Assembly (NCBI GenBank): GCA_012401045.1 | Contig: GCA_012401045.1_4704.1 | DNA: 64,000 nt | Strand: one strand, 5' to 3' | From: a phage | Part shown: piece after piece, positions 1,826 to 31,838 of the stretch | Layout: each line of letters opens with the position of its first letter | Numbering within the stretch: position 1 is the first letter of the stretch | Position numbers and translations under genes: made by a program | The notes under the pieces: model-generated | Database searches by the model: none | Seen by the model: only the letters and a program-made list of their open reading frames with translations | Told to the model about the DNA's origin: nothing

Positions 1826-4800
1826 TTAAATTGTCGGTTTTACATCACGTAATAAGGCAATATAATAGCCTAATCCTCGGAGGATCTCCCCACTCCAGAA
1901 ACCAAAATACATTCCGTCTCTGCCGAGATTAGCGCTATCTGGTGCGGGACTCCACCCACCATTCATTACGTCATCAACGGTGTAGCGGTTGATGTAGTTT
2001 TCAACGATTTCATTATAAACGTTAACGGCAACAGGATAGCCTTTATCGTTGGGATGCCCATACAACATCGCTAACGACGCACCCGCTAACCATAATCCTG
2101 CCATGTGACCAGTAAAGTCGTTCGGGATAAAGGCAGGGGGTTTATCCATCGGAAAATCCGTAGGAGATTGATAAGCGTTTTCCTGTTGATACGTAAACAA
2201 GAAATCAATCCAATGGCTGATGTAAGTGGTTAACTTCTCAGGGACAGCTAAACCACGATCAAGCAGTCCAGCATAAAGCCTCACCGCTGAAAAGAAAGCC
2301 CTCGGCTGATAACCAGACCATGCTGTCTGATCGCCGAAATGGTACATCGTAAAATCATTAACTTTTGATCCGCTTGGCGCATCCCAACGATCCCACACGT
2401 ACGCACTTGCTCCTGGCCCTAAAACCCCGAATTTCTGATAATACCACTGCTGCGAGTCATACCAGAAATTCACAACATTCTGAATCATGAGGTCACGTCG
2501 TTCAGCCGATACGTCCATATCCAGGAAGACCCATGGATGTTGGTAGCCGGGATAAGGCTGACCACGCCAACTGTCGAACGTCGGTGCGTTAGGGATATAG
2601 TTGTTAGAGAACGGAATAATACCCGGAGTATAAGGCAATGGATCCAGACGTTGGTTGACAATCGTGCAATCGCCAACACGTAATGTTCCCTCCGCCTCAA
2701 AGGTTGCTTTTAACGTAAACAGCATGGTATATCCGTCATCCGTGGTGTAAGTTGACGGCGGATTGTTGATGGCGTAGAGCTTAAATACCCCCTCAGCGAT
2801 ATCGCTGTCGTCAGGCAAGAACAGAATTTCAGTTGAACCGTCGCCCCACACAGGTGCGGAAGGTTTAGGGTCAGTATCAGCATGGCCAGGTTGATACCCT
2901 GAGAGCCTCCATCCGTTCGCCGAAAGCGTCAATGTATTTCTTGCTGTGGTGGCCGGTAGCATATACCACCATCGCCAACCATTTGCATCTTCTACACGAA
3001 CGTTGTAGTCAATCGACGCGAAATAACTGACCTGCCTTACGATCTGTTTTGCGGTTGGATTGAATTCAAATTGTCCGCCTGCCGCAGTAAGCTGCGCTTT
3101 TAGGAACAACCCATCCCAGGAATCTTCCACCGCTTCGCTGAATTCTGTTGTGATTGCGATATCGTCTTTCCAGCCGACTTTATCAGCCGATATCAACACC
3201 GAACCTGTAACAGCATCACCGGTTGGTGTTGAAGCTTCATCAACCGCGTCAGCAGGAATCAACGAGCCTATTTTGAAATCCCATCCTTTCGGTTCAGCGC
3301 TGGAAGGTAATACCAGCTTGTACGTTTTGGCGTTCGCTTCGGTTTTGTCCAAAGAAAGCGATAATGAGATTTCAACCGGAATTGCAACGCCTGCTGTATC
3401 TTTACCTCCGCAGGTTATACGAAGAATTGAATCACGATTGACGCGGAACGGGATGGCCTGCTGTTCAAGGTAAATTTGTGCTGAAGATGCTTGAATCACG
3501 ATCCAGCCATCGGTATCACGCGTGATTGTAAACGGTGCTTTCGATGGGTATGTATACGTGTAAGCGATACCGTCGGTGTCGTAACGATCGGTTCCTTTTA
3601 CCTGACGGAAGAACTTATCGTTGGCGTCAATACGGGTATATTCTTCAATCGTGAACAAAGATGCCTTGTACGCTTTCTGATAACGCTCCTGCTGCGTTAA
3701 ACGGTATAAGGTGTATGCTGCTTCACAAAACCACTGTTCGGCGTCTGACGCGTTTCCCATGTAGTCTCTGGTGACCGGTACCTGGATCGGTCGGTTATGC
3801 TGACATTCGTTTGTTTTAATAAGGTATCCGCCGTATTCAACAGGAACACGGGGTGCCCATGCAACCAAGTAAGAACCATTGACGGATCTATCTTTGAGTA
3901 CGATGGTACCTACTTCATCGTCGGTACACGCTTCAAGATCGTCCCCGTCAGCACTTACGTAACGTTTTGTGCGTAACGCAACTTTCTCGATAGGAAACAC
4001 CGTACCCTTTGTATCCCAGTCGATCGTCCCATCATCATTGGTTTTGAACACATCCGCGTTCAAATTCTGCCAGCCGAGTTTACCCTCATAGACCTGAACA
4101 ACAAGATCCGTGTACTCCCCGAACGTGGGCGCACCGTGTGTTATTTTTCCAATACCGTTGGTGAATGTAACCGCTGTGTCATGGAAACCACCGTGTGTCG
4201 GATAATCGTCTTTTGCAAGAGGATAATGGGCCAGCACGGGTTGTTTACCATTAACAATCCAGTTAGCGATCCAGCGTGCCGGTGTATCCGGTGGTTCAAG
4301 GCCCGCATAGAACGCTTTTATATACGCATCGAACGATGACTCTGCTAATGTGAGATAATGCGCTTTAAGCTTGCTATCATCCGTTGTATGACTGAATATA
4401 CCGGCACCCAGAATTAACAACGACTGTCCTTCTGTTGTTGCGTCACCATCCGGTTGTGCTTCTTGTCGTGTTGCTGCAATGAAATGGCGGTTGTTTACCA
4501 TGACCCCGCTTTCATTTAACACGTAATGATCGGTTTCTGGATTGGTAAACGTTCCTGTATTTCGGGTTAAGAAGCTTGCATGACCATAACCAACGAAATT
4601 AACCGGCGACGCTGTAATCACCCATTTACCGATAAGTTGAGCAACATCATTATAACGCTCGGATGATGTGATTTGTTTCACGTACCAGTCTTTACGGTTG
4701 AATGTCCAGAGCAAGAAGTAATAGGTGGTATCGATTTTCATCACTGGGAACGTCGGTGTTAACGGCTCCAGCGTTAAGTAGTTGCTCCAGTCGATTTGTC

Positions 4801-8247: not shown

Positions 8248-8745
8248 TTACGTGTGTCGTCGTTTACCAAAGAAAATGTGGCTGTCTACCACGGTGATAT
8301 TGGTAGCATGTTTTCTGAAATGCTTAGGGCGAAGATGTTTCGCGTTAAAGAATACGGCTCCTCGTGTTGGGTCGGCTTTATGGTAAGCCGCAATGTCAGT
8401 ATAACGTAATGTTGCGACCTCTCGTGCTATTGCTCTTGCTCGCTCAAAAGCAGCATGATCGCGTATGACAATACGCCTTTGTTTTGTCCAGGGGAATTGA
8501 CCTCTCTGCAGTACGACGTCTTTGACGTTAGTAGGGAATCGGTAGTCCATAGATCGATTATGTATTAAAAACGCCACGGAGTATTGCCCTTTTACAGATT
8601 CGCCTCTGGCTTCCATATACACAGCGCATGCGACGATCTCTTTCCGGCAATCGATTCTAGGTCCTGCGTTCACCGATGCTTGACTGAACGGTGCGATAAG
8701 CAACATAACAAGCCCTAAAACCAACGTGTGTAAAATACCTTGCAT
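8248..8745 (-). CDS. secreted cell-wall hydrolase, SleB/CwlJ family (putative endolysin)
   Basis: N-terminal signal peptide (LVLGLVMLLIAPFSQA) followed by CAVYMEARGE, matching the hallmark CLA..Y.EARGE motif of the SleB/CwlJ hydrolase family. Confidence 0.6.
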   Translation of the reverse strand: MQGILHTLVLGLVMLLIAPFSQASVNAGPRIDCRKEIVACAVYMEARGESVKGQYSVAFLIHNRSMDYRFPTNVKDVVLQRGQFPWTKQRRIVIRDHAAFERARAIAREVATLRYTDIAAYHKADPTRGAVFFNAKHLRPKHFRKHATNITVVDSHIFFGKRRHT

Positions 8746-8997
8746 CTTAATAACCTCACGATAAGGTGCTGTCCACTGGCGTCTTGATAACGCATCCCGT
8801 CATCGGGTTGTTCTATTCAGCGGGCAGCAGGTTAGCGTCAGATGTTTGCCCGACATCCACGACAGAAATAAACGGTACTGAAATTACGGTCTCCTCTGGT
8901 TTGGCAATAAACATAACGTTGGATAACAGAACCCATTTCCCGCATCCAACGCGGTAAAGGTGTACATCGTTTGAATTCATATAGTTTCTCAAAGATG

Positions 8998-9309
8998 TTA
9001 ACCTCTACCGTCAAGCCATAGGTTGTATTTATCCCGAACATACGGATCGCGATAAATACGTCGATATACTTGATGTGGTATAAACTCGCAATGTACGAGT
9101 TCGTCGCTTAATTTATGGCGTCGCTCCATACCGTTGTGAATACGACGTATCTCCCGGATATTAAAGGTTGTTTTATTCAAGAGAATAGACATAATGGCAG
9201 ATCGATGATCCAGATTAAAGATCGCCATCACGCTTCGTATCTCGCGTAAAACAACTTCTCTATCGACAAGGATGCGATTAGTTAACTTAAGATTCTCCGT
9301 GATACCCAT
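8998..9309 (-). CDS. hypothetical protein
   Basis: Track ORF 8998..9402 trimmed to ATG at 9309 with GAGGAAG RBS, which removes most of the overlap with the upstream gene. Confidence 0.35.
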   Translation of the reverse strand: MGITENLKLTNRILVDREVVLREIRSVMAIFNLDHRSAIMSILLNKTTFNIREIRRIHNGMERRHKLSDELVHCEFIPHQVYRRIYRDPYVRDKYNLWLDGRG

Positions 9310-9658
9310 AACCTTCTTCCTCGACACGTCGACACATCGGTAAAAATAAACACCAGCTTGTTGCACTGAGGATCGCCGTTGCGATGATATTTGCGATATC
9401 ACTCAATCGAGCATCGGCTTGCCACATAACAAGCATGAAAAGAACGTACGCGAACCCATACACGACAAACCGTCTGATGTTACGCGTCGACCACGTACAA
9501 ATATACAAAAGGGGAAGCTGCCCTATAACACAAACGATGGTTCGGATAACGTAATAAACGCGTTCCGTCGTTGTTTCAAAATCGATATTCGTTGCAGAAA
9601 TCCCAATCATTATAAAAGTGAAAATGAAATAGATTTTTGCGTATGTCTTTAAACTCAT
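9287..9658 (-). CDS. multi-pass membrane protein (lysis cassette candidate)
   Basis: 123 aa with 3-4 hydrophobic segments; adjacent to the holin-like ORF and near the hydrolase. Confidence 0.4.
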   Translation of the reverse strand: MSLKTYAKIYFIFTFIMIGISATNIDFETTTERVYYVIRTIVCVIGQLPLLYICTWSTRNIRRFVVYGFAYVLFMLVMWQADARLSDIANIIATAILSATSWCLFLPMCRRVEEEGYGYHGES

Positions 9659-9674
9659 GGCTTTTCCCGATCGT

Positions 9675-9908
9675 TTATTTGTGTTTTCCTACATTCCTCA
9701 ACAAGGTAACGATAACGAATACCGCTATCATCAAGAAGACGAACCATAACCCTACGTTAATTCGGGCAGCAGGTTCATCGACCATGAAGAACATCATCCC
9801 ACAAAACCCAATGACCATCCATGCTAGAACCATCCCCGTTAATCCCCGTAGTAGCATATGTCCCATCATGAACTCCTTCTTACTTTTTCTGATAAAGCGA
9901 TGATTCAA
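9675..9908 (-). CDS. small two-helix membrane protein, holin-like
   Basis: 77 aa with two hydrophobic helices and a charged C-terminus (RNVGKHK); position upstream of the hydrolase. Confidence 0.4.
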   Translation of the reverse strand: MNHRFIRKSKKEFMMGHMLLRGLTGMVLAWMVIGFCGMMFFMVDEPAARINVGLWFVFLMIAVFVIVTLLRNVGKHK

Positions 9909-10042
9909 ATTTTAGAAACATCACTAACGCGAATGCGAGTAATAACGCACGTACCCACATACCTCCTTGACAACTGTTGTACAACATAAAGACCAGAGCA
10001 ATGCCGCCCATATGTAGGCGGCACTTATCGAACAATGTTGGT

Positions 10043-10252
10043 TTATACATAAGAGATTAAACGTTGAATGATTTTTACTTTGCCTTTACCTGGACCTTTC
10101 TTGCGGCGATTCAACAGACGGATACTGTTTCCAGTTACGGTGTCGCCATCATAATCAGCCCGGAACTGTGATAAAAAAGCAGGTTGTATCTGATCGACAC
10201 CAGGATTGCTGTGGAAAGGATTGAGACTTAAAAGAGGGTTAGCTGGAATCAT
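10043..10252 (-). CDS. small basic protein with KKGPGKGK motif
   Basis: Track ORF trimmed to ATG at 10252 with AAGGA RBS; C-terminal NRRKKGPGKGKVKII motif shared with three small ORFs at 28588-29154. Confidence 0.4.
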   Translation of the reverse strand: MIPANPLLSLNPFHSNPGVDQIQPAFLSQFRADYDGDTVTGNSIRLLNRRKKGPGKGKVKIIQRLISYV

Positions 10253-10270
10253 CGTATTGTCCTTACTCAA

Positions 10271-10621
10271 TTATTTACCCAGATAGAGATATTCACCACC
10301 CTGAACAACACCGGTTGCTGGATCAACAAGTATACGAACCCGCGCGTAGGTCTTGAAAGAGGGGTTGAAAACTTCGAAGTCTGCCACTTTCAATTTCACG
10401 CTGGGGTTGGTAGGGTTCTTAACTCCGGGAAGTTCTTTCGGGGTACCGAAATCAACACCGCATTCTTCAAGGTCTGCTGGCGTCATGCTCTCCATGGCCA
10501 TGTAGATTGCTTTTGCTTTATCGTAAACTTCTGGGCTATCCAGCAATCCAGCCTGCGCCGAACCGACAACACTACCGAACAGAATAGCAACAGCAACAAA
10601 CAATTTAGTTAACGTTTTCAT
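10271..10621 (-). CDS. secreted hypothetical protein
   Basis: Signal peptide (LFVAVAILFGSVVGSAQA) and GAGG RBS. Confidence 0.55.
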   Translation of the reverse strand: MKTLTKLFVAVAILFGSVVGSAQAGLLDSPEVYDKAKAIYMAMESMTPADLEECGVDFGTPKELPGVKNPTNPSVKLKVADFEVFNPSFKTYARVRILVDPATGVVQGGEYLYLGK

Positions 10622-10657
10622 GATATTTTCCTCGAAAGTAAAATGTTACAATACCTA

Positions 10658-11080
10658 TTAACGTACGGCCGCTACGCTGTTAGCGCATGCCTGAATATCA
10701 TCGGTATTTACGATGATGGTTTCGTTAAACGCACGAATACGCGCACGACGTGCTTCTTTAAGGCTGGCGATTGCGCTAGCAGCTTGATCTGTATTCGCAA
10801 GGCTAATAACCGGGATCAAACGCATGTCAGGACTGCAGATATTCAATGCTTGGTATACACGTCCATTGATTCCTACGGTATCAGACATCGGATAGTGCGC
10901 GCTGCATTGAAATTGACCCATGACAACAAGCGAACGATCGGAGATACCAATCTGATAACGACCGTCTTCGCTGTAGGCGTAGCAGTTATTCCCACGAGCC
11001 ATCCAGTTAGCCTGTGCTTGCGTGCTAACAAAAGCCAGGGTGGTGACGATAGCGAATACGATATTTTTGAACAGTTTCAT
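10658..11080 (-). CDS. secreted hypothetical protein
   Basis: Track ORF trimmed to ATG at 11080 (MKLFKNIVFAIVTTLAFVSTQAQA signal peptide) with AAGGA RBS. Confidence 0.5.
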   Translation of the reverse strand: MKLFKNIVFAIVTTLAFVSTQAQANWMARGNNCYAYSEDGRYQIGISDRSLVVMGQFQCSAHYPMSDTVGINGRVYQALNICSPDMRLIPVISLANTDQAASAIASLKEARRARIRAFNETIIVNTDDIQACANSVAAVR

Positions 11081-11138
11081 GATAAAGATCCTTATTGAAA
11101 TAAAATCGGTATAAAGGCCCCCATTTAGGGGGACCTGA

Positions 11139-11456
11139 TTAGTTTGCACGTAAGAAATGACCTAGAACCGTTACAATTGGAAACAGTCCTGTAACCGTAT
11201 TATCACCCGAAAACATCATCTTTGAGTCGTTAACGGTGATGAAACGGATGTCGGTTGCGGATCCGTCGATAGCGACAAAACGCATTGAGTTCGGTGGAAG
11301 GTCCTCAACCACTTCCACGAGGTACTCGCGATTATCAAAGGCTTCTTTAACACGACGCATGAAACGAATCAAGGTTCCTTCCGCGTCAGCTTCCAAATGA
11401 CCTAAGATATCGCGATTATTACGAATAGCGAATACAGCCATTTTAAACATACTCAT
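11139..11456 (-). CDS. hypothetical protein
   Basis: 105-aa ORF with AAGAGGA RBS; conserved 20-nt motif lies ~70 nt upstream. Confidence 0.45.
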   Translation of the reverse strand: MSMFKMAVFAIRNNRDILGHLEADAEGTLIRFMRRVKEAFDNREYLVEVVEDLPPNSMRFVAIDGSATDIRFITVNDSKMMFSGDNTVTGLFPIVTVLGHFLRAN

Positions 11457-27236: not shown

Positions 27237-27864
27237 TGATACCTTCTATTAGTTGTACAGCAACTTCTTTTTCGGTGCTATAAAAGAACTTGCGGTGGAA
27301 CTGAACAAGAAGCTTTTCGAATTTACATTGAACGATCTTTTTGCGTTCGATGTGACCCAGGGAGAGCAAAGCACCCATGCAACGTACCGCTTGTTCGAGA
27401 ACCTGTTTCGCGGTATCGTGATCGTCCGGTAACGGTAAATCTTCCTCGTCATCTTTAGCGATAAGACGTCTAATGATGTTATCGATACGTATCTCATCAC
27501 CGTTAATGAAAGCGCCTTTCTCCCATTCATCAAATCGTTGATGGATTCGACGTTGTAAGTTGGCCCTGTCTTCCGTTAACTCTTTCAACTGGTTTTCTAA
27601 GTGGGATACGGTACGGCGGTCGGTTTCAGTGAAGTTTTCCGATTCTTTGTACCACCAATCATTACGCGCTTGTAAGTCATTAATGCGAGATATTGTCCGA
27701 CGACACTCACTAACAAGCCCATCACCATTCGGTAGCTCTGTACCGAAATAGCTTTTGTATTTATAACGCATAACGCGGATTAAACGTTTCGCTAGAAAAC
27801 CTTGTTTTTCCAGTTTCTTCTTCAGCTGTGTATATTTCTCTTCTTTTGTTTCCATTAATTCCAT
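27223..27864 (-). CDS. hypothetical coiled-coil protein
   Basis: 213-aa ORF with charged heptad-like stretches. Confidence 0.45.
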   Translation of the reverse strand: MELMETKEEKYTQLKKKLEKQGFLAKRLIRVMRYKYKSYFGTELPNGDGLVSECRRTISRINDLQARNDWWYKESENFTETDRRTVSHLENQLKELTEDRANLQRRIHQRFDEWEKGAFINGDEIRIDNIIRRLIAKDDEEDLPLPDDHDTAKQVLEQAVRCMGALLSLGHIERKKIVQCKFEKLLVQFHRKFFYSTEKEVAVQLIEGINEVK

Positions 27865-28253
27865 GATGTTGTACCTCGTTCAGCAATCAGGAGAGTCGTG
27901 GTTGTGCTTTTCACTAATCTATTAAAGTCTTGATATATCCGCCTGAGGGATTGTTTTAGATCGCAATAACGGCTGAAATAAACCTTCAAGTCATCTTTTG
28001 TCACTGTCTCCGTATTTATTTTCGTAGAAACACCGAGATCGATAAACTCTTTTCTTAATTGGGATAATTCATCAAGAAGTCGATGGTGGCTTAGATAAAT
28101 AACAGATTTATCGGATAACAACTCGCCGGTTATCCGGCTCTGGCGTTCATCGAAATATTGGAGCCGCCATTCAATTCGCTTACGTAATTTATCAAGTAAA
28201 TCAACAAAAGCGGTATAGCTGTTAACGGCTAGGTTAACTTGACTCGTTATCAT
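27855..28253 (-). CDS. hypothetical protein
   Basis: 132-aa ORF; no motif recognised. Confidence 0.45.
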   Translation of the reverse strand: MITSQVNLAVNSYTAFVDLLDKLRKRIEWRLQYFDERQSRITGELLSDKSVIYLSHHRLLDELSQLRKEFIDLGVSTKINTETVTKDDLKVYFSRYCDLKQSLRRIYQDFNRLVKSTTTTLLIAERGTTSWN

Positions 28254-28600
28254 TCCACTTTCTCCGTTATATGCTTTAAACTGTTACGTATGCTTTTCAA
28301 TCGATGGTTAAATCCGGAACGATAACATTTCCGTACATCCCGTGCTGCTCGCGCTTTATTCGCCTGATGAAGCTGTTCATTCACCTGCGACGCTATACGT
28401 AAACGCTCTAATAAAGACCTCAACCGAACGACAACCAACGGCTGTTCTTTCACCTTCTCTAGTTTGAGTAAATAGTCAATATGAAACTTTATTTCGATAA
28501 TCTGATTCCTGTTTTTGCGGTACTGATGAATATACCAACATCGACGAAAATAGGCGATGTTTAGCATCGGGTAGATCCTTTTCAACGCTACCTCCAACAA
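28250..28600 (-). CDS. hypothetical basic protein
   Basis: 116-aa ORF; no motif recognised. Confidence 0.4.
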   Translation of the reverse strand: MLEVALKRIYPMLNIAYFRRCWYIHQYRKNRNQIIEIKFHIDYLLKLEKVKEQPLVVVRLRSLLERLRIASQVNEQLHQANKARAARDVRKCYRSGFNHRLKSIRNSLKHITEKVE

Positions 28601-28785
28601 TACATCGGATTAGGCGCTTTATGGTATTTATAGATACCTACTTTCTTCTGTTTACCTTTACCTGGGCCTCGTTTAATACGTTTGTTATAAACACGATCCA
28701 AATATCGATCAACGATAAATCGGGATAAATACACCGGATCGATATAAGCCAGGGTACCCGCTTCTGTTTCTTCGAGACATTGCAT
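28588..28785 (-). CDS. small basic protein with KRGPGKGK motif
   Basis: 65-aa ORF with GAGAGG RBS; motif NKRIKRGPGKGKQKKVGIYKY. Confidence 0.4.
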   Translation of the reverse strand: MQCLEETEAGTLAYIDPVYLSRFIVDRYLDRVYNKRIKRGPGKGKQKKVGIYKYHKAPNPMYCWR

Positions 28786-28811
28786 GCGTAACCTCTCTTT
28801 CCTCTAAAAAG

Positions 28812-29015
28812 TCAGTCCAACATAAGCCATGGCATCGCTTTCGCGATAGAATCCACCGCAGCATTTGCGATCCTTCGTTCGGTGGTTGGTACCACATGCA
28901 CCACGAACCGTTTTCCTTTATTGCAACCTTTCTTGTGTTTTCCTTTGACTAAACGAACACCAATCATGTCGTTGATAACATGATTTAGTATATGGCGCTG
29001 TAGAGAATTAATCAT
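28812..29015 (-). CDS. small basic protein with KKGCNKGK motif
   Basis: Track ORF trimmed to ATG at 29015 with GGAG RBS; motif VKGKHKKGCNKGKRFVVHV. Confidence 0.4.
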   Translation of the reverse strand: MINSLQRHILNHVINDMIGVRLVKGKHKKGCNKGKRFVVHVVPTTERRIANAAVDSIAKAMPWLMLD

Positions 29016-29154
29016 CACTTTTACTCCAGGCCGAGAAGATTCTCGGTTTTAGTTCTATCTGTCCGCATATCCAGGTGTATCTCCATTTACCTTTACGAGG
29101 ACCTTTCTTATTTTTAACACCTATCAGAATACGATAGGGATATGACCAAGCCAT
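29008..29154 (-). CDS. small basic protein (48 aa) with KKGPRKGK motif
   Basis: Not in the supplied track (under 60 aa). ATG at 29154 preceded by AGGAG RBS; translation MAWSYPYRILIGVKNKKGPRKGKWRYTWICGQIELKPRIFSAWSKSDD; stop overlaps the next start. Confidence 0.35.
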   Translation of the reverse strand: MAWSYPYRILIGVKNKKGPRKGKWRYTWICGQIELKPRIFSAWSKSDD

Positions 29155-29525: not shown

Positions 29526-30545
29526 TTACACCGCCACCTTAGCCTTGATAGCGGGGTGTGATTGATATCCGACGAACACAAAGTCTTCGTAACGGTAATC
29601 CGTAATACTTTCCGGTTTACGTACAATTGTTAGCTTCGGTAATGGGTACGGCTCACGGCTGAGCTGCTCTTTAACCTGTTCGAAGTGGTTGTGATAGATG
29701 TGGCAATCTCCACCCGTCCACACGAACTCACCAACGTCCATATTCAGCTGTTGGGCAAGCATATGTGTTAACAACGAATATGAGGCGATGTTGAACGGTT
29801 TCCCAAGCACCGTGTCGCACGATCTCTGGTAAAGCTGACAGGATAAAGCACGTGTTGGTACGTTATGTGCATTCAACCAAAGTTCCGTTTCACTGTGTCG
29901 TACATCATCCGTAACCCACTGGGTTCTTAATACGTCGTTGCGTTGAACATAATCAACACGTTCATCGATCGTGAGCTCGTGGGTATAGAACTGATAGAAA
30001 CTGTGGCATGGGGCGAGGTGCATATCGTCTAAATCGCCTACGTTCCACGCGCTAACGATGATTCGTCGAGAATCAGGATCTTCTTTAAGCTGACGCATCA
30101 CGTTTGCAATCTGATCGTGATGTCTAACATACACGAGGTGTTTTAGCATACCGTCATTAAGAATGCCGCAATACTCATAGCCGCGTTGCATCAACTCACG
30201 AGTACGTTCTGTATCGTGCGGAACAACCACTTTGTAGTCAATCCATTCCCGCCACTGCCTACCGTAAATCGGTCCTAGATTCCCTTCTTCGTCAGCCCAT
30301 TCATTCCAGATACGAACACCGTTATCTTGAAGATAAGCAACGTTTGTGTCGCCGTTAAGAAACCAGAGCAGTTCGTGGATAACGCTCTTAAGGTGAATCT
30401 TCTTGGTGGTTACCAGCGGGAATCCTTTCTTCAAGTCAAAACGCATTTGACGTCCGAATACCGAACGGGTACCGGTACCTGTACGATCGGCTTTATCGCG
30501 ACCGTTATCCATGATGTCTTGCAAAAGGTCCAAATACTGTCTCAT
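29526..30545 (-). CDS. thyA: thymidylate synthase (ThyA family) with two internal insertions
   Basis: Track ORF trimmed to ATG at 30545 with AAGGA RBS. Near co-linear with E. coli ThyA ([28 protein letters not shown], catalytic [21 protein letters not shown]), interrupted by insertions of about 35 and 45 aa. Confidence 0.85.
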
Positions 30546-30849: not shown

Positions 30850-31731
30850 TCAATAACAGTTATAATGGGTTCCAAGCCGCTCCGGTTTTCTCAGAAGACT
30901 ATCTTTAAGCGGTACGACGTCGATATCAACGTTTTCTGAATAATAACCATTAGAACTACCATACCAACGAATAACAACACATCCTTTTGCTGTACGAATA
31001 TGGTAAAACGTCCATCGCGTACGTTTGCAAAAGTCGTCATCCTCGTCTCTTTCCTCGGTTCTTTCTTCAGCGCTAAGTATCTTCTCACCAATAATGTCGT
31101 TAAGATCGCCATCGATGTCTTCAAGGTACACTTTTTCACAGCAATCTTGCTTATGGCAGAATTCAACAACGTTCCCATCGCCCCGATAGAAAAGAAGGGC
31201 AATACTGTATTGTAGCTGTTCGGCCGTTAAGTCTGTGGCGCAATACAAACTTTGATCTTCGGTTATCACCAAGACATTGTTGATTACGTGTCCGGCAAGC
31301 GCTCCGATCTTATTTACCGTGATAATCGGACGAACCGGTTCAGGTTGAACGATAGGGATACGAACACAGCCAATTAAAGCCATCCGTCCTTTCTTTGGTC
31401 TAACCGCAAGGTAAGGTGATTTTCTTGGGTGGTTATGTAGTCGTATTTCTACCTCGTTGAATTTAATCCCGTATATACCCAAAAACCGATCGAACAGTTT
31501 ATGAAATTCCTCGGTTGCCTCTTGCAGTGTGATGTTATTTACCGTGAGTTTATGTCCCCTGAACACCCGGGTTAAATCGATAACATCCAGTGTTTTGAAA
31601 TATATTTCCGTAAGGGGATGATCGGTGTTTTCCAGGTAAGTAATTGTTCTTTGAACCACGATTTTAGGTTGTGCACCTTTAAAACGTTTCAGGTATTTAA
31701 CACGATAACGGGTATGATCTGATGTTAACAT
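30850..31731 (-). CDS. hypothetical protein
   Basis: Track ORF trimmed to ATG at 31731 with GGAGAGGAG RBS, removing overlap with the upstream terminator hairpin. Confidence 0.5.
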   Translation of the reverse strand: MLTSDHTRYRVKYLKRFKGAQPKIVVQRTITYLENTDHPLTEIYFKTLDVIDLTRVFRGHKLTVNNITLQEATEEFHKLFDRFLGIYGIKFNEVEIRLHNHPRKSPYLAVRPKKGRMALIGCVRIPIVQPEPVRPIITVNKIGALAGHVINNVLVITEDQSLYCATDLTAEQLQYSIALLFYRGDGNVVEFCHKQDCCEKVYLEDIDGDLNDIIGEKILSAEERTEERDEDDDFCKRTRWTFYHIRTAKGCVVIRWYGSSNGYYSENVDIDVVPLKDSLLRKPERLGTHYNCY

Positions 31732-31789
31732 TTTAATCTCCTCTCCCGACTTCAGAGAATTCTTAAAATCCGTTAGTTTTGATAGACAG

Positions 31790-31827
31790 GATAAGACGGC
31801 ATAAAAGCCTCCCGTAATGGGAGGCTT
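31790..31827 (-). terminator. intrinsic terminator
   Basis: 9-bp stem AAGCCTCCC/GGGAGGCTT at 31805-31827 followed on the minus strand by UUUUAUGCC. Confidence 0.6.
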
Positions 31828-31838
31828 CATTAATCAGC

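Follow-up and report, generated by a model that had tools for sequence, protein, structure and literature searches.

Four small basic proteins sharing a lysine- and glycine-rich octapeptide: a probable orphan family of Goslar-like jumbo phages

Here we characterized four small genes of a phage contig (GCA_012401045.1_4704.1 of NCBI GenBank assembly GCA_012401045.1), the whole analysed stretch of which, 64,000 nucleotides (nt) long, is referred to as the window. All four lie on the minus strand, and each encodes a short basic protein with a near-identical octapeptide. Three of them are adjacent: P1 at 28588..28785 (65 amino acids (aa), isoelectric point (pI) 9.7, net charge +8), P2 at 28812..29015 (67 aa from its ATG, pI 10.7) and P3 at 29008..29154 (48 aa, pI 10.2). 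The fourth, P4, is found at 10043..10252 (69 aa, pI 10.4). The octapeptide reads KRGPGKGK in P1 (codons at 28651..28674), KKGCNKGK in P2 (28911..28934), KKGPRKGK in P3 (29086..29109) and KKGPGKGK in P4 (10079..10102). The original prediction, made from the letters alone, had described these open reading frames (ORFs) as a family of small basic proteins with a common motif and good ribosome-binding sites. The four ORFs, their positions and the motif strings that it quoted are all correct, and a Shine-Dalgarno sequence stands 6-8 nt before each ATG (GAGAGG-6 nt-ATG in P1, GGAG-8 nt-ATG in P2, AGGAG-6 nt-ATG in P3 and AAGGA-7 nt-ATG in P4). A GTG one codon upstream of the ATG provides an alternative start for P2, which would then have 68 aa. 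P3 overlaps the start of P2 by 8 nt (ATGATTAA), an arrangement that looks like translational coupling.

The 4-kb stretch around the three-gene array matches Escherichia phage vB_EcoM_Goslar with 93.6% identity over 83% coverage. Goslar is a nucleus-forming jumbo phage of 237,307 bp in the genus Goslarvirus, and published papers assign it to the Chimalliviridae. P1, P2 and P3 are the orthologues of Goslar_00137, Goslar_00138 and Goslar_00139, and P4 is the orthologue of Goslar_00102 (gp137, gp138 and gp139, QBO63930-32; gp102, QBO63895). Orthology is indicated both by amino acid identities of 87-98% over 100% of the length (87.7% for P1 and 87% for P4) and by synteny, since the order and the neighbours of the four genes are as in Goslar. 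All four Goslar proteins are annotated 'hypothetical protein', and the papers and supplements that we searched discuss neither gp102, gp137, gp138 and gp139 nor the motif or a family relationship; the genes appear there only as rows of an RNA-seq table. The coverage of the match is limited to 83% because two genes of the window have no counterpart at these positions in Goslar. A 132-aa ORF at 27855-28253, which shares 4 and 10 nt with its neighbours, is the first, and the gene of a 326-aa DUF7448 protein at 30850-31830 the second; both are also present in a relative (L007). The thyA gene of the window (29526-30545) is uninterrupted. In another Goslar-like relative (L012, 75-2202), a presumably intron-borne homing endonuclease of 281 aa (GIY-YIG/NUMOD3) interrupts this gene, which stands just upstream of the array.

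The octapeptide is far more frequent than chance would produce. Six-frame scans of the window with a strict pattern (K[KR]G[PC].KGK) and with a loose one ([KR][KR]G..[KR]G[KR]) each returned exactly four matches, all in P1-P4, against means of 0.00 (strict) and 0.07 (loose) and a maximum of 1 in 60 first-order Markov simulations of the window. A scan of a complete genome had been proposed along with the original prediction; run on the 237,307-bp genome of Goslar, it found the motif in those four genes and none beyond. Comparison of the motif codons among the window, Goslar and six more Goslar-like contigs revealed synonymous third-position changes in every subfamily (GGT/GGC/GGA/GGG, CCA/CCT/CCC/CCG, AAA/AAG, CGT/CGC and TGC/TGT), with the peptide kept throughout. 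The Nei-Gojobori ratio of nonsynonymous to synonymous proportions (pN/pS) was below 1 in 20/20 pairwise comparisons, with an overall range of 0.00-0.63 (P1, 0.25-0.60 against five relatives; P2, 0.07-0.58; P3, 0.00-0.34; P4, 0.40-0.63). Retention of the motif was also high among 112 retrieved proteins, each a cluster representative: KKGPGKGK in 31/32 P4 proteins, KRGPGKG[KR] in 40/43 P1 proteins and KKGCNKGK in 17/22 P2 proteins.

The DNA that encodes the motif had likewise been described as conserved over 24 nt, which raised the possibility that the segment is itself a regulatory repeat and that the ORFs go untranslated. The likeness holds for P3 and P4, whose motif codons agree at 21/24 nt, but not for P1 and P2, which were left unmatched by a 24-mer search of the window allowing 3 mismatches. 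The same search found no additional, non-coding copies in the window, the DNA similarity is confined to 19-33 nt around the motif and stops there, and no inverted repeats were found around it. Together with the synonymous drift among orthologues that leaves the peptide intact, the pN/pS ratios below 1 and the Shine-Dalgarno sequence before each ORF, these observations make a DNA-level element scarcely credible, and we rejected it on the pattern of substitutions. Since the motif accumulates synonymous changes, pN/pS stays below 1 and the DNA repeat ends at the motif, we infer that the ORFs are translated and selected as proteins; the codon comparison thus confirms that conservation of the motif acts at the protein level.

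P1-P4 span pI values of 9.7-10.7 and net charges of +6 to +8, contain no transmembrane segment and are soluble. A short hydrophobic stretch does follow the motif, as had been noted, but it has the character of an amphipathic beta-strand and is not of transmembrane grade, the maximum 19-residue Kyte-Doolittle average being below 0.9. In P4, the hairpin IRLLNRR-KKGPGKGK-VKIIQRLISYV follows an ADYDGD loop, and the AlphaFold2 model built from the P4 alignment places strands at residues 44-52 and 59-67, joined by GPGKG. The predicted local distance difference test (pLDDT) of this model averages 67, 81 and 71 in 10-residue blocks over residues 41-69, and 58 over the whole chain. The AlphaFold2 model of P2 (mean pLDDT 60) consists of a helix (4-17), a strand (20-23), a 16-residue basic loop, a second strand (40-43) and a second helix (45-60). 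Placement of the motif at the tip or in the loop of a predicted beta-hairpin, and not in an extended hook, is therefore moderately supported by the models. This distinction bears on the earlier suggestion that the motif loosely resembles AT-hook peptides, which did not hold up. As in AT-hooks of the HMGA type (PF02178/SM00384), a short basic peptide rich in Lys/Arg, Gly and Pro occurs in a small protein and presumably contacts nucleic acid. However, the defining G-R-P core is absent from P1-P4, which have G-P-G, G-C-N or G-P-R instead, the motif is predicted to be a strand-flanked hairpin tip whereas AT-hooks are extended hooks in disordered regions, and there was no Pfam match.

The proteins had been called unrecognised, and they have remained so in profile searches of Pfam, PHROGs, NCBIfam and the PDB, none of which gave a significant match. 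No Pfam family matched P1-P4 at E<=1. PDB profile searches returned nothing below E=0.04 and no ribosomal protein at E<1, the best ribosomal candidate being uS11 with P4 (E=1.6-1.8), and Foldseek searches of the PDB and BFVD, with low-confidence models as queries, recovered only the Goslar orthologue. Thus neither profile, sequence nor fold comparison connects P1-P4 to a known ribosomal or nucleoid protein family at a significant level. The KOW domain of uL24 and NusG, Cren7 and Sul7d, and the arms of HU and IHF combine two strands with a turn rich in glycine and lysine, in proteins some 60 aa long. P1-P4 resemble them in design only, with no sequence, profile or fold match; the KOW profile (PF00467) was not matched by P1-P4, nor by nine P2 homologues at E<=5. 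The predicted topology of P2 is compatible with the swapped hairpin of AbrB/MazE/SpoVT (PF04014), with no Pfam match and an empty Foldseek result from a low-confidence model. Two further candidates for P2 were discarded. DUF7439 of Pfam (E=0.072) was matched by only 3/9 homologues, at a best E of 0.03, and is not supported, and the likeness of the C-terminal half to GluRS (PDB profile E=0.044 and 0.19) was taken as a chance or analogous strand-helix pattern.

Homologues of P1-P4 are confined almost entirely to one lineage. Searching 50,697 phage genomes by tblastn yielded homologues in Goslar only, and IMG/VR added one other genome, of 237.5 kb. A collection of 5.8 billion proteins contained 9 P2 clusters and 36 P4 clusters, as well as 109 clusters detected with a profile of all four subfamilies; for P1, about 48 homologous clusters were counted. 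These clusters comprise proteins of 38-96 aa on contigs of up to about 250 kb, almost all of them Goslar-like and ~240 kb long, and many of the contigs carry the label of E. coli, Salmonella, Shigella or Enterobacter assemblies. With the P2 profile as query, exhaustive HMMER searching of 1.84 billion representatives retrieved 3 clusters, all from the Goslar-like clade, and 185,579 species-representative bacterial genomes contained no relatives of P2. In JGI metagenomes we found 10 loci, 6 of them on 209-249-kb contigs of Goslar-like size and 4 on short contigs. Outside the lineage stands a single example, P0112 (L015 492-701), an ORF of 69 aa on a P22/Sf6-like contig, where terS and terL are separated by three small ORFs that include it. 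Its KKGCNKGKR is identical, and it aligns to the N-terminal half of P2 with an hhalign probability of 96% (26.7 bits), but the type of phage and the genomic context are different, 9 residues are inserted after the motif and the C-terminus diverges. This alignment makes true homology of P0112 with the N-terminal half of P2 probable, and the case suggests gene transfer between unrelated enterobacterial phages.

Within the lineage, the number and form of the genes are in flux. A metagenome contig of 208,844 bp (L146) carries a fifth member between P2 and P1, a P2-like protein of 50 aa (MREGKGERRLIRYLKESWLPYIIGGRFKTAKYKKGCNKGKVYTIRVFKPR, 4189-4341), and with this extra copy the array shows tandem duplication directly. 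P1 is missing from another relative (L013), and P3 has forms of 93-96 aa with an acidic N-terminal extension in L007 and L012. The 96-aa forms of P4 contain an internal duplication of the unit 'DxDxD...IRLL.RRK', of which the upstream, degenerate copy reads GDRDSDSAV...IRLLVRRKNSD. Other parts of the proteins are constrained along with the motif or drift freely around it. The C-terminus of P2, AKAMPWLMLD (window 28812-28840), is invariant in all full-length P2 homologues and may, from this pattern, be a docking peptide; the N-terminal 16 residues of P2 (window 28955-29015) diverge freely. In P4, residues 32-37 (ADYDGD, window 10124-10141) are nearly invariant in 28 homologues, with variable flanks, and are followed by T/V-V; this segment looks like a DxDxD metal-binding loop.

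The octapeptide itself is more widespread than the four genes. A degenerate DNA scan of IMG/VR for KKGPxKGK gave at least 118 matches, which we examined. Among the matches listed, most belong to a family of proteins of ~55 aa that end in ...GATGTQRYRIKKGPNKGKIL (phrog_32989), and others lie in the loop of a beta-hairpin of HNH_3 endonucleases or, as KKGPLKGK, in portal proteins. The phrog_32989 family (loci L024-L136, for example L042 3578-3601; terminus ...EVEIGATGTQRYRIKKGPNKGKIL) was also found by tblastn in the pelagiphage myovirus HTVC008M and in the pelagiphages HTVC027P and Kolga, which have smaller genomes. The P2 form, KKGCNKGK, occurs in two related GIY-YIG/NUMOD3 endonucleases of IMG/VR. 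Like P1-P4, the phrog_32989 proteins are tiny phage proteins, spread over unrelated morphotypes, in which an octapeptide of the KKGP-x-KGK type follows a beta-strand-like segment. They differ in that the motif is C-terminal and not internal as in P1-P4, and no similarity exists outside it: P1-P4 did not match the phrog_32989 profile at E<=1, and hhalign aligned 10-13 motif columns only. Unrelated phage proteins thus use the octapeptide repeatedly as a hairpin element, a recurrence that favours a generic structural or binding role for it, yet the motif alone is no proof of homology. A bolder interpretation is that the KKGPxKGK hairpin is a portable targeting module, grafted onto mini-proteins by unrelated phages and directed at one conserved polyanionic target. 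Its carriers would be not only the Goslar-like jumbo phages but also a P22-like phage and pelagiphages of three morphotypes. A ribosomal RNA (rRNA) site or the nucleoid could serve as the target or, in Goslar-like phages, the infection vesicle or nascent phage nucleus; and the four Goslar paralogues would be diversifying effectors under one address label. We regard this idea as improbable.

The recurrence of the octapeptide also complicates the question of whether the four proteins descend from one ancestor. When models of the subfamilies were searched with hmmsearch against 2,629 six-frame ORFs of Goslar, the best non-self match of the P1, P3 and P4 models was another member of the four (P1 to P4, E=0.0017), and the P3 model found P4, P2 and P1 at E=0.1-0.5. 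The P2 model ranked P3 only fifth, at E of about 2, after three unrelated ORFs. By hhalign, P4 and P1 align over 35 columns with a probability of 80%, and both contain I-x-P-x-[YF]-L-S-x-F upstream of the motif; P3-P4, P2-P3 and P2-P1 align over 22, 14 and 9 columns, mostly the octapeptide. As a control, an unrelated family bearing the octapeptide (phrog_32989-like) was compared with P4 and reached an hhalign score of 29.7, the same as P1 against P4, over 13 motif columns only. Because this unrelated family scores equally, the octapeptide is insufficient by itself as evidence of homology. It could accordingly be argued that the four proteins are not one family and that independent origin or recruitment explains the octapeptide, a Lys/Gly beta-turn of a favourable kind, in which case only P1 with P4, and P2 with its duplicates, would be true paralogues. 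The short alignments between subfamilies other than P1/P4, the equal score of the control and the presence of the motif in HNH_3 hairpin loops, portal proteins and a GIY-YIG/NUMOD3 linker speak for this explanation. It does not readily account for three of the four genes being adjacent and co-oriented, for the tandem duplication seen directly in L146, for a chance expectation of 0.07, or for the strand-loop-strand layout and the pattern of basic residues before the motif that all four have in common, and we consider it unlikely. Adjacency, the duplication in L146 and the extra similarity of P1 and P4 give good support to common descent, while descent of P2 and P3 from a common ancestor with P1/P4 is not proven by the alignments. 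The term 'family' in the original prediction is thus justified for small basic proteins with a common protein-level motif, but common descent can be demonstrated only in part.

A different origin would be the decay of larger genes, with the ORFs as remaining fragments of either RNA polymerase beta' or a homing endonuclease. The ADYDGD of P4 resembles NADFDGD of the beta' catalytic loop, and beta' also contains GKKGIFQGK. Residues 22-44 of P4 match a PHROG named 'RNA polymerase beta subunit' (E=0.16) and, in tblastn, PhiPA3 gp212 (E=1), and P1, P2 and P3 all align by blastp to one 50-residue stretch of Goslar_00231, in which GKKGIFQGK lies (E=0.016-0.76 in a 3-sequence database). On the endonuclease side, P1 contains a GIY-like 'VGIYKY', the P2 octapeptide recurs in the GIY-YIG/NUMOD3 linker, and in one relative the thyA gene next to the array, on its upstream side, houses a GIY-YIG endonuclease. 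Moreover, both beta'-like genes of Goslar have group I introns with HNH endonucleases inside their DFDGD codons, a position that made it attractive to view P4 as a copy of a homing site. This idea was dropped because the P4 profile scored only 2-5 bits, both on the spliced Goslar beta' products, for which E=2-8 at proteome size, and on a fragment from E. coli. Beta' is not among the top matches of any subfamily model, and the likeness of P4 is restricted to the hexapeptide A-D-Y-D-G-D, which is not significant at the profile level; P4, with its 69 residues, also lacks the double-psi barrel. Debris of a homing endonuclease was rejected as well, since the P2 model aligned with three GIY-YIG/NUMOD3 enzymes over the octapeptide only, at no more than 8.5 bits. 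There was no Pfam match to GIY-YIG, NUMOD3 or RNA polymerase, and purifying selection on frames that stay intact across diverged genomes is unlike pseudogene debris. A fragment origin is therefore very improbable. The two beta'-like genes, both outside the window, are each interrupted in their (N)ADFDGD codons by an annotated group I intron with an HNH/NUMOD1 endonuclease: Goslar_00188 ends ...GYNADF (168235-170910 of the record; L005 18235-20910), and Goslar_00231 ends ...AGLGGD (211817-215264; L006 11817-15264), with exon 2 reading FDGDTVSVNVLYS...

Published RNA-seq counts place transcription of the genes in Goslar. Reads taken 30 min post infection are tabulated for HOV27_gp102, gp137, gp138 and gp139 (Armbruster et al., bioRxiv 10.1101/2023.09.20.558163, Supplementary Table 2), and all four genes are transcribed at about 0.4-1.5 reads per nucleotide, like their neighbours. 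Upon knock-down of ChmA, the mean log2 fold change was ~+1.2 for gp102, ~+0.3 for gp137, ~+0.4 for gp138 and ~-0.4 for gp139 (overall -1.0 to +1.3), and the blocks gp096-106 and gp135-142 behaved in the same way, whereas virion genes fell by 4 to 7 log2 units. As the fold changes are near those of the neighbours and unlike those of virion genes, the four genes fall into the ChmA-independent class, which the authors equate with early, vesicle-stage transcription (bioRxiv 10.1101/2023.09.20.558163).

The surroundings of P4 gave a different first impression. Two genes for signal-peptide proteins (10271-10621 and 10658-11149) and three for small membrane proteins (9880-10050, 9675-9908 and 9287-9658) lie beside it, and a SleB-type cell-wall hydrolase is encoded nearby (8248-8745), all on the minus strand; the run of genes from 8248 to 11149, P4 included, has the appearance of a lysis cassette. 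The view that P4 belongs to a late lysis cassette is weakened by the Goslar data, in which gp098-gp104, the hydrolase included, keep near-normal RNA at ChmA knock-down, unlike late genes.

Taken together, it is very probable that P1-P4 are genuine, translated members of a lineage-specific family in which the hairpin motif is constrained. As to what they do, we tentatively propose that they are early mini-proteins that bind polyanions or nucleic acids, with DNA or structured RNA as the most probable ligand; this is possible, and short of probable. In each protein, two amphipathic strands would make up a beta-hairpin with K-[KR]-G-[PC]-x-K-G-[KR] at its tip or in its loop, and this Lys/Gly hairpin would bind polyanions as an arm in contact with a groove of DNA or structured RNA. 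The flanks, which differ among the paralogues (the C-terminal helix of P2 ending in AKAMPWLMLD, the ADYDGD loop of P4 and the acidic N-termini of P1 and of the long P3 forms), would give each one its own specificity or partner. The three adjacent genes represent an expanding and contracting tandem array, of which P4, most similar to P1, would be a dispersed copy, and together the four proteins would serve as accessory early factors of host takeover or genome handling. Both nucleic-acid binding and biological role are what we infer from these features, and several points weigh against the proposal. Acidic proteins or anionic lipids would be equally possible ligands of a polybasic loop. The AlphaFold2 models are of low confidence overall (mean pLDDT 58-60), and Pfam, PHROGs, NCBIfam, PDB sequence profiles and Foldseek against the PDB and BFVD gave no match to a DNA- or RNA-binding family. 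The expression data come from Goslar and not from this phage, the equivalence of HOV27_gpNNN with Goslar_00NNN was deduced from gp041 being the major capsid protein and gp141 being of thymidylate synthase size, and the read counts of these short genes are below the 1,000-read cut-off of the RNA-seq authors. Lastly, some database copies, P4 among them, are truncated or frameshifted and P1 is missing from L013; the genes are therefore dispensable, making this a fast-evolving accessory gene family with one strongly constrained element.

Alternatively, the polybasic hairpin could be a docking or targeting motif for a partner other than nucleic acid, such as an acidic protein of the host or the phage, or a negatively charged membrane (either the inner one or the EPI vesicle of early phage infection), with the variable flanks carrying the effector function. 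Such a role would fit the position of P4, which has genes for two signal-peptide proteins on one side and for three small membrane proteins on the other and lies upstream of a cell-wall hydrolase gene, and also the ChmA-independent class of its neighbours, which are expressed while the EPI vesicle exists. The octapeptide at the extreme C-terminus of the unrelated ~55-aa pelagiphage proteins of phrog_32989 is also reminiscent of a portable tag, and the invariant hydrophobic-acidic tail PWLMLD of P2 resembles a protein-docking peptide. However, P1-P4 contain no amphipathic helix or hydrophobic anchor, the neighbours of P1-P3 are not membrane-related and computation does not distinguish docking of this kind from nucleic-acid binding. 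We hold docking, the main alternative, to be unlikely and retain early binding of DNA or structured RNA as our working proposal.

P1-P4 form a lineage-specific orphan family typical of the early regions of jumbo phages and a member of no known family, the existence of which is real but will not surprise phage specialists. Nucleus-forming jumbo phages possess long blocks of uncharacterised early genes that act before or during construction of the phage nucleus, and a small family of basic hairpin proteins in the early class, growing and shrinking in copy number, could plausibly supply factors of host takeover or genome handling. If the octapeptide is a binding module that the mini-proteins of pelagiphages and P22-like phages also use, it would offer a handle on phage 'dark matter'.

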